Source of the DNA: a virus
Reading direction: 5' to 3' (one strand)
Virus genome (UHGV): UHGV-0179380
DNA: 54,525 nucleotides
Each line of letters begins with the position of its first letter. The stretch's first letter is position 1. Positions 12,795 to 13,935 of the stretch are shown here, piece by piece. A program made the translations under genes and the position numbers. Under the pieces are notes generated by a model. The model searched no databases. It worked only from the letters and a program-made list of their open reading frames with translations, and was not told where the DNA came from.

Positions 12795-12962
12795 AAAACC
12801 CCCATAAGTTACATTTTGTATATATATTTACGCGCTTCTACGCGATAAATGAGATCTTCATCACAATGATTATAGCTAGTTTACAAAATGGCTTCACATA
12901 TCTCGCAACAAGATGTATACAGAAAGCAAGAAGAAAAGCAGTACCAACGAAGGAGGCCCAAA

Positions 12963-13058
12963 ATGAAACGCTATGTAGTGGTAATGCTAAACAACGCATT
13001 CGAACAAGTGGAAATAGCAATCGTTAAGGGTTTCGACGACGCATTCAAATACGGTTAA
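12963..13058 (+). CDS. small ORF (31 aa), moron cassette
   Basis: MKRYVVVMLNNAFEQVEIAIVKGFDDAFKYG with aaggagg SD. Confidence 0.35.
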   Translation: MKRYVVVMLNNAFEQVEIAIVKGFDDAFKYG

Positions 13059-13135
13059 TTCATGATGAATGCAAAAGAAGATGAATACCGGGACTTCTTC
13101 CTGAAGGCACTTAACTAAGGATGATGGGGTGAGTT

Positions 13136-13390
13136 ATGAAACTGGTAGCGATTGACAAAAATCTGAAAGCACAGAAAAACGCGCCGGGACATGTAGTCAA
13201 AAAAGCAAAGGAACTTTTGAACGCGTTTTTAAACAAGAATGCGTCACCCAAAAAATTGAAAGACGGTTACGGCTACGCCTTCCGCGCCAATTTAGACTGG
13301 CGAGTCTATAGCCAGGATCTGAAAGAGTGGGTGATTGTTGAACACCATAAATTCAATGAATTGTCTGGCGTTCGCGGTTGCCATAAGTGA
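13136..13390 (+). CDS. hypothetical protein (84 aa)
   Basis: Lys-rich N-terminus; segment GYGYAFRANLDWRVY; plus strand. Confidence 0.5.
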   Translation: MKLVAIDKNLKAQKNAPGHVVKKAKELLNAFLNKNASPKKLKDGYGYAFRANLDWRVYSQDLKEWVIVEHHKFNELSGVRGCHK

Positions 13391-13508
13391 GGTGGGTATG
13401 GAGGACGATAAATTCACCTGGAGGGAGATCTGGAATATTTGGTTGGTGATGTTTTCTCGCAGCTATATAGCCAGAAACGGAAGATTGTAATTTGCGGAGG
13501 AAAATAAA

Positions 13509-13679
13509 ATGAAAAACCAGGCAAATAAAAGCAATGTAAAACGTATGGCATGGGTGCTAAAATGGATGGATAGTAAAGGTGATACATATACATGCCCATT
13601 TTTTAGGTATACTGACGCGGTATTTGCCAGAAGTGTACACGGAGGGAAAATTGAAAGAGGGTATGCAAGATTTGAGTAA
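13509..13679 (+). CDS. small ORF (56 aa)
   Basis: ATG with ggagga SD. Confidence 0.4.
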   Translation: MKNQANKSNVKRMAWVLKWMDSKGDTYTCPFFRYTDAVFARSVHGGKIERGYARFE

Positions 13680-13718
13680 ATTTATTCACTAAAATTAATA
13701 ACATAATGAAGGTTTATA

Positions 13719-13898
13719 ATGATTATTCATGAAACTGAAGAATGCAGAAGGATTGATCTTAGTGTTGAAGATGATGGAAGATTATGGATCGTTAGCGACT
13801 GCGAGATGATTGTAATAGACAAAAAGCAAGCTGACGAACTGATAAGCGCATTACAGCTTTATGCAAACGGCGAATTTAAAAATGATGAAATTGAATAA
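13719..13898 (+). CDS. small ORF (59 aa), acidic
   Basis: MIIHETEECRRIDLSVEDDGRLWIVSDCEMIVIDKK...; followed by terminator. Confidence 0.4.
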   Translation: MIIHETEECRRIDLSVEDDGRLWIVSDCEMIVIDKKQADELISALQLYANGEFKNDEIE

Positions 13899-13902
13899 AG
13901 AT

Positions 13903-13935
13903 AACCCCGGCATTGTACCGGGGTTTCGTTTATTT
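13903..13935. terminator. bidirectional terminator
   Basis: aaccccgg-cattgta-ccggggtt hairpin with T-rich flanks, between moron cassette and tape measure stop. Confidence 0.65.

Follow-up and report, generated by a model that had tools for sequence, protein, structure and literature searches.

An antisense cassette in the tail region of an mEp021-group coliphage encodes a protein with a predicted RelE/ParE-type toxin fold

The virus genome UHGV-0179380 (54,525 nucleotides, the whole stretch analysed here and called the window) carries a compact cassette of small open reading frames (ORFs) at 12880-13925 on the plus strand, antisense between a gpM-like gene and the tape measure gene. The core product of the cassette, an 84-residue protein designated ORF C, belongs, as judged from its predicted structure, to the RelE/ParE toxin superfamily. 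We hold with moderate confidence that the cassette is a lineage-conserved antisense accessory island and that ORF C would be a RelE/YoeB-like effector that targets translation, is independent of an antitoxin and is held in check transcriptionally. A preliminary description of the region had noticed a faint likeness of the 84-residue protein to RelE/ParE-type toxins and had raised the possibility of a toxin-antitoxin or defence/anti-defence cassette. The likeness was borne out by a match to Pfam family PF24732 and by an AlphaFold model. A defence or anti-defence role of the cassette is possible, while the toxin-antitoxin part of the proposal fared poorly, as described below.

The window phage is a temperate Escherichia coli phage of the mEp021 group (mEpimmI). 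The mEpimmI group was described previously (PMC11893012), in a paper that did not discuss the cassette, a ParE-like gene or toxin, or the repeated box considered here. The 1.1-kb region was matched in seven phage records at 81-96% identity, all of them mEp021/"mEpimmI" Mexican E. coli phages or the close relative MagusPhagus, in which the ORFs are labelled "hypothetical proteins" and located between the minor tail protein and the tape measure gene. A prophage within a 178.8-kb bacterial contig was 100% identical to the window over 9963-16058, indicating that the cassette sequence is carried by a living lysogen.

Family and fold of ORF C

ORF C (13136-13390, +) matched Pfam PF24732 (ParE_like) with 32.1 bits against a cut-off of 24.4, and also phrog_1525, a family of unknown function. 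Only 12 clusters reached E <= 0.001 when 1.84 billion representative proteins were searched exhaustively with a profile. All relatives scored above the PF24732 cut-off, as did ORF C itself; the family was matched by all seven single-domain distant relatives (25-49% identical) and by 11/11 members of a diverse set, with a best E of 6e-19. Names already in the databases point in the same direction. Homologues in E. coli genomes carry the RefSeq (PGAP) product name "ParE family toxin-like protein", and distant relatives in other phages had been deposited as "YafQ-like ribonuclease toxin" or "HigB-like".

The AlphaFold model of ORF C, calculated with distant family members added, had a predicted local distance difference test score (pLDDT) of 86.5 and a predicted template modelling score (pTM) of 0.74. 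The predicted order of elements was beta-beta-alpha-beta-beta-beta-alpha, giving the compact alpha/beta fold that characterizes the RelE/ParE superfamily, and the best structural matches were the HigB, YoeB, RelE and YafQ toxins, mRNA interferases that ORF C resembles in size as well as in predicted fold. The likeness did not extend to ParE proper, the gyrase poison, since neither PF05016-type membership nor a closest structural likeness to ParE was found.

At the level of sequence, the similarity to these toxins was faint. A narrow ORF C profile retrieved nothing from the PDB sequences. When the profile of the diverse set was compared with 177,635 PDB sequences, two YoeB chains ranked highest at E 0.15-0.2, which is below significance, with the KL...R-L-[VL] segment in register. 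Comparison by hhalign of the family profile with approximate single sequences gave a weak in-register match to YoeB and no match to RelE or to RK2 ParE.

Within the ORF C family, K40 and R56 are invariant and L41, G46, D61 and W65 are nearly so. R56 lies opposite the catalytic R65 of YoeB within the shared segment (KL...R-[LV]-[LV]). A motif, H70-x-x-[YF]73-[ND]74, is also nearly invariant; it follows the last strand and recalls the RelE-type interferases in its histidine and aromatic residues. The motif may replace the C-terminal His83/Tyr84 of YoeB, a part of that protein that did not align. The fold of ORF C is established; its nuclease activity is putative.

The same residues bear on whether ORF C is toxic at all. 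The protein could be a non-toxic derivative of the RelE fold, acting as a ribosome- or nucleic acid-binding regulator or as an anti-defence factor in the phage's own cycle, which would account for a core gene without an antidote. Such a role would suit its conservation across the phage lineage instead of a sporadic occurrence, its tolerance in the absence of the neighbouring ORF A, the lack of the catalytic Glu46 of YoeB and the occurrence of homologues among the small genes of virulent and other phages. However, K40, R56 and the His/aromatic motif are kept family-wide at positions used by RelE-type nucleases, and nothing positive speaks for an alternative activity. We regard a non-toxic ORF C as unlikely, but the idea has to be reckoned with.

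Natural variants of ORF A and the question of an antitoxin

The preliminary description listed a 31-residue ORF at the head of the cassette. The small ORFs of that list were all present, but the 31-residue ORF is not a separate gene. It is the first half (12963-13058, +) of a 51-residue gene designated ORF A (12963-13118, +), of which an 18-residue ORF (13062-13118, +) is the second half. The gene is intact in the other aligned relatives (MKRYVVVMLNNAFEQVEIAIVKGFDDAFKYGQFMMNAKEDEYRDFFLKALN). A single C to T change at 13056 (CAA to TAA), the only difference in ORF A between the window and MagusPhagus, splits it. Longer versions of ORF A were rejected, both a 56-residue form starting from the ATG at 12888, within the box described below, and the 68- and 76-residue forms called in databases. 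Among close relatives, insertions and deletions before 12963 alter the reading frame, whereas the 51-residue core and its AGGAGG do not vary.

The nonsense allele of the window (P0113) was found on at least four long contigs, and it was not the only lesion. Phage-sized scaffolds that keep an intact ParE-like gene carried a frameshift allele (P0114, locus L033). Another frameshift (P0115) and a deletion of four residues (P0107) were recovered as well, and ORF A was wholly absent from an E. coli chromosome (L008) that retains the ParE-like gene. Intactness of ORF C was checked and confirmed for the nonsense allele, P0114 and L008. The ORF C protein of the window and the DNA upstream of it were identical to those of relatives with an intact ORF A, and neither contained a visible change that might compensate for the nonsense mutation. 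As judged from these natural variants, ORF A was shown to be dispensable while ORF C is intact.

ORF A is the only near-constant neighbour of ORF C and as such the obvious candidate in a canonical type II pair, where it would be the labile antitoxin of the ORF C toxin and the pair would stabilise the prophage or abort infections. The order and sizes are typical: the small ORF comes first, 18 nt separate it from ORF C, and the Shine-Dalgarno sequences are good. The two genes occur together in 7/7 phage records and in nearly all loci, ORF C has a toxin fold and ORF A is under strong constraint. An antitoxin, however, is expected to be indispensable, and ORF A has been broken or lost several independent times beside an intact ORF C, in the case of the window's prophage allele without any change in ORF C or the DNA upstream. 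ORF A also has no antitoxin or DNA-binding signature; it matched phrog_29810, of unknown function, and nothing in Pfam, NCBIfam or the PDB sequences, and its homologues are confined to the mEpimmI phage lineage, none of them with a Pfam domain. The same was true of the cassette as a whole. ORFs A, D, E and F gave no match to an antitoxin or DNA-binding family in Pfam, NCBIfam, PADLOC or the PDB sequences. This also sets the cassette apart from YoeB, RelE, HigB and YafQ, since it has no partner of the YefM, RelB, HigA or DinJ type.

Two further observations were unfavourable to a cognate pair. Co-variation of ORF A with ORF C was tested and was not found: one ORF C protein (P0009) was accompanied by two ORF A variants, ending in ...KVVN (L004) and ...KALN (L006), and identical ORF A proteins were found with ORF C proteins that were 58-100% identical, some pairs only 58-64%. 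Moreover, the distant PF24732 genes had no conserved partner, downstream or otherwise. They occur singly in strings of small genes in virulent and other phages, and their neighbours are mutually unrelated. One of them adjoins a gene resembling that for T7 Gp0.4, and some belong to Sortsne-like and jumbo Klebsiella phages. The toxin-antitoxin module suggested in the preliminary description is thus not supported, because there is no antitoxin signature, ORF A is dispensable, the two proteins do not co-vary and the family has no conserved partner; a type II pair is, in our estimation, improbable.

As a separate observation, the PF24732 gene overlaps the end of a ParB-helix-turn-helix (ParB-HTH) gene in two unrelated contexts, Serratia phage OS31 (L029, 668-1701) and an enterobacterial island (L024-L026, 1897-2713), so that ParB-HTH and PF24732 may form a recurring pair.

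Genes of the cassette

The coding status of the cassette was assessed from the ratio of nonsynonymous to synonymous polymorphism (pN/pS) relative to relatives. The values were 0.075 for ORF A, 0.22 for ORF C, 0.11 for ORF D, 0.22 for ORF E and 0.29 for ORF F, and on this comparison all five are genuine genes under purifying selection. The ORF D value was obtained from five distinct alleles, including that of mEp021 at 74% nucleotide identity.

The preliminary description had assigned each ORF a Shine-Dalgarno sequence. This was correct for the 31-residue ORF (AGGAGG at 12951-12956), for ORF C (GGGGTGAG), for the 30-residue ORF D (GAGGTGG) and for the 56-residue ORF E (GGAGG); that of the 59-residue ORF F is weak (AAGG), and the 18-residue ORF has none of its own. 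ORF D (13398-13490, +) is a small Trp-rich protein. It was considered as a membrane peptide and rejected, the hydrophobic run read from its sequence being only about 9 residues. ORF E (13509-13679, +) is small and basic and gave no family match in Pfam, phrog or NCBIfam searches, and ORF F (13719-13898, +) is small and acidic and belongs to phrog_13627. Scans of the cassette against the Rfam, PADLOC and NCBIfam libraries revealed nothing relevant, PADLOC offering no defence-system model for it, and a repeat search found nothing of note.

The cassette is flanked by two genes on the minus strand, the gpM-like minor tail protein (12441-12794, -; PF05939, 97.8 bits) and the 780-residue tail tape measure protein (13930-16272, -; PF20155 in homologous loci). 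A 66-residue ORF directly downstream of gpM (12244-12444, -) matched phrog_3249 (E 1.5e-20) and is kept in relatives as a gene of 60-66 residues.

Putative promoters, repeated box and terminator

The spacer between M and ORF A is 170 bp long and highly conserved. In an alignment of 16 relatives, a conserved GGCTTCAC block supplies a -35 hexamer, TTCACA (12893-12898), and a conserved ACAAGATGTATAYAG block supplies a -10 hexamer (12916-12921) that is TATACA in the window and TATATA in other relatives. The spacer between the two hexamers is always 17 nt long although its sequence differs among relatives, a pattern typical of sigma-70 promoters, and 12893-12921 (+) is accordingly the putative promoter of the cassette. 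A consensus promoter scan missed it because the scan demands T at position 6 of the -10 hexamer.

The motif that the preliminary description placed ahead of the cassette was confirmed as a TTTACAAAATGG box at 12880-12891 (+), ending 1 nt upstream of the cassette -35, and it occurs far more often than expected from shuffled sequences. There were five exact copies of the 12-mer in the window and 23 with <=2 mismatches, compared with 9.4 +/- 2.9 in shuffles, and its core TACAAAATG, with 15 copies against 0.58 expected, was the most over-represented 9-mer. Exact copies lie at 12880(+), 37976(-), 46436(-) and 49484(-), and copies with one mismatch include 11341(+), 16312(+), 16340(-), 32176(-), 45593(-) and 53444(-). 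The box is an asymmetric 12-bp element distributed genome-wide, for the most part at the starts of genes and in short gaps between them. Two pairs (16312/16340 and 32148/32176) are arranged as inverted repeats of 12 bp, both spaced by 16 nt.

A second, divergent promoter probably shares this box. A perfect TATAAT at 12869-12874 (-), kept in every relative and pointing at gpM, is the -10 of a candidate promoter, P_M, whose 17-nt spacer contains the 12880-12891 box. Because the box sits in the spacer of P_M and abuts the -35 of the cassette promoter, the two promoters overlap, diverge and apparently share one box, an arrangement with the look of a PR/PRM-style switch. A further box copy, TATACAAAATGT (core TACAAAATG), at 12811-12822 (-), precedes the gpM start codon by 17 nt and lies in a block conserved in the 16 relatives.

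The geometry of the cassette promoter recurs elsewhere in the window. On the minus strand, the box at 45593-45604 is followed by A-TTGACT-N17-TATATT with exactly the same spacing. This PL-like promoter is beside a CI-like repressor gene and points at an Arg-rich N-like ORF (44924-45214), and more box copies occur between the repressor gene and the rightward operon. The immunity region as a whole (44924-46668) includes, besides the strong PL-like promoter, a CI-like repressor of 215 residues (45715-46362, -) in which a helix-turn-helix and a LexA-like cleavage domain were recognized by eye. The TACAAAATGG box may be a scattered operator or activator site. Such dispersed sites are familiar from the C1 operators of P1 and the 'stoperators' of L5, to which the boxes can be likened. 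A LexA box and an IHF site were both rejected by eye as its identity, and the idea that the inverted box is regularly followed by a -10 hexamer was abandoned, as it is true at some sites only.

The bidirectional terminator noted at the end of the cassette in the preliminary description was upheld. The hairpin at 13903-13925 scored as an intrinsic terminator on both strands, with folding energies of -15.9 kcal/mol on the plus strand (z -2.4) and -17.3 kcal/mol on the minus strand (z -4.7), and serves both the cassette (+) and the tape measure gene (-). In mEp515 and mEp021, terminators are annotated at the equivalent spot. As the tape measure transcript ends at this hairpin as well, transcription of the tail operon must either pass it by read-through or begin anew beyond it. 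N-type antitermination is known in the mEpimmI group (PMC11893012).

Conserved core and exchangeable cargo

ORF A and ORF C were present in 7/7 mEpimmI phage records. The cassette alone was matched in 35 complete E. coli genomes, the same count (35) as for the wider stretch from M to the tape measure gene, and the exact ORF C protein was indexed in 504 blocks of an assembly collection. Because ORF C itself was used to retrieve most of the loci compared, the counts of phage records and genomes are the less biased evidence. They indicate that the ORF A-ORF C core is a feature of the lineage and not a sporadic insertion; a sporadic distribution was seen only for ORFs D, E and F and other cargo. 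Comparison of the insertion point, as the preliminary description had proposed, thus revealed a constant core followed by a mosaic.

ORF D is absent from L006/L007/L009 and L010-L013, and the presence of ORF E varies among loci. ORF F is homologous to a 70-residue ORF directly after the ParE-like gene in L010-L013, is reduced to a truncated 38-residue form in L006/L007/L009 and is missing from MagusPhagus and L014-L019. In relatives the slot after the ParE-like gene is occupied by an HNH homing-type endonuclease (mEp515; L002, 3082-3588), by a CapR/treble-clef zinc-ribbon protein and a T5orf172 protein (mEp021; L003, 3682-5016) or by a 95-residue hydrophobic protein (L010, 4467-4754). By its gene content, this slot is a cargo hotspot with domains of the conflict-system type.

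That one of these downstream proteins is the antidote, in the toxin-first order of HigBA, is very improbable: the 70-residue ORF F-like gene overlaps the stop of the ParE-like gene by 4 nt in L010-L013, ORF D starts 7 nt after ORF C and is kept even in mEp021, and ORF F reads as acidic where ORF C is basic, but neither candidate is universal, ORF D being missing from seven loci, ORF F missing from or truncated in the loci given above, and L008 lacking both ORF A and ORF F.

Two further antisense units were observed in the tail region. A second cassette (11341-12238, +) between gpL and gpM has a box at 11341 and a terminator at 12220-12238 and encodes a 51-residue ORF (11367-11522, +), a 116-residue ORF (11535-11885, +) and an 82-residue KilAC/ANT-like protein (11895-12143, +; PF03374, 28.7 bits); the start codon of the 116-residue ORF lies inside a box copy. 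A third unit (16286-16995, +), which precedes the tape measure gene on its upstream side, comprises a palindromic pair of boxes (16312-16351) and a 139-residue ORF (16576-16995, +) with an N-terminal segment resembling a signal peptide. Different cargo is found at this spot in relatives, for example a VasI-domain protein in L008.

Discussion

With its own terminator (13903-13925) and an orientation opposite to M and the tape measure gene, both on the minus strand, the cassette would be an accessory unit lying antisense in the late tail operon, in a moron-like 'noncontiguous operon' arrangement. Its transcription would start at the sigma-70 promoter directly after the genome-wide TACAAAATGG box and end at the two-way terminator. 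The unit would consist of a constant core, ORF C and ORF A (the latter represented here by a nonsense allele), and a swappable tail of tiny genes. ORF C would be an effector aimed at translation, nearest in fold to the ribosome-dependent mRNA nucleases YoeB, HigB, RelE and YafQ. In this proposal its restraint would come from transcription, through the box-associated promoter and through run-through of the late operon on the opposite strand, and a dedicated antitoxin would therefore be unnecessary. The pay-off could be abortive-infection defence in the lysogen or early host shut-off during infection.

Several observations weigh against this proposal. The position of the catalytic Glu46 of YoeB is occupied in ORF C by Lys39, and there is accordingly no simple conservation of the active site. 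The databases hold about a dozen clusters of truncated ORF C proteins (P0012, P0013, P0038-P0047; 46-61 residues), indicating that the ParE-like gene also decays in some prophages, and by analogy the truncated alleles resemble the decaying toxins of toxin-antitoxin pairs. The putative cassette promoter, deduced from conservation, is modest, matching 9/12 consensus positions. Finally, ORF A is under very strong purifying selection, the tightest of the five genes, and must therefore do something; a partial or conditional antitoxin role is conceivable, and some activity might persist in the 31-residue fragment or in an 18-residue peptide made by re-initiation at 13062.

Genes switched by antisense placement in a prophage are known. 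In Staphylococcus aureus phage 80alpha, the defence gene of the Tha/Ith pair, whose product Tha is an RNase, is controlled in this way (PMC11087260), as is the defence gene of TaiEcA/AtiEcA in a prophage operon of phi80 (PMC11364771). The layout of the cassette is similar, in that accessory genes with their own promoter, a putative one in the cassette, oppose a phage operon and would be switched by the stage of the life cycle, but the proteins are unrelated and here three antisense islands interrupt the tail genes.

Classical morons are exemplified by gp15 of HK97, which adjoins the tape measure gene. Like the cassette with its putative promoter, they are small extra units that lie among the tail genes and have a promoter and a terminator. 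The cassette differs in its antisense orientation and in that the ORF A-ORF C core was present in every lineage member examined; only the genes downstream of ORF C behave as swappable morons. The PaaA2 system is also prophage-borne and likewise combines a toxin of the RelE/ParE fold with a tiny partner lacking DNA-binding activity, but ORF A has no sequence relation to PaaA2, a regulator gene is absent and ORF A is dispensable.

Part of this picture was already known: the fold family is in Pfam and RefSeq, the genomes are published and antisense accessory units have been described in prophage operons. What goes beyond the existing annotation is the argument from natural variation against a toxin-antitoxin label, the split ORF A, the proposed divergent promoter pair and the genome-wide box. 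A more far-reaching and quite doubtful extension is that PF24732 comprises a class of phage-borne, antitoxin-free translation nucleases of the RelE type, and that the mEpimmI gene is kept safe by the TACAAAATGG-box promoter, possibly through operators of the CI-like repressor, and by antisense run-through, with ORF A a modulator and not an antidote. If that were true, a toxin would be controlled by genome architecture and not by a partner protein.

A gene of the RelE/ParE fold is thus a fixed, antisense-embedded part of the tail region in a prevalent lineage of gut coliphages, and natural knock-outs of its neighbour argue against the reflex "toxin-antitoxin" label that is emerging in the databases. 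If ORF C is active, it would provide a tractable effector with a toxin fold that is regulated by transcription and genome layout, without an antidote. The cassette would then bear on how dangerous genes can be carried safely by a prophage and on how solitary toxin-like genes of phages are annotated.

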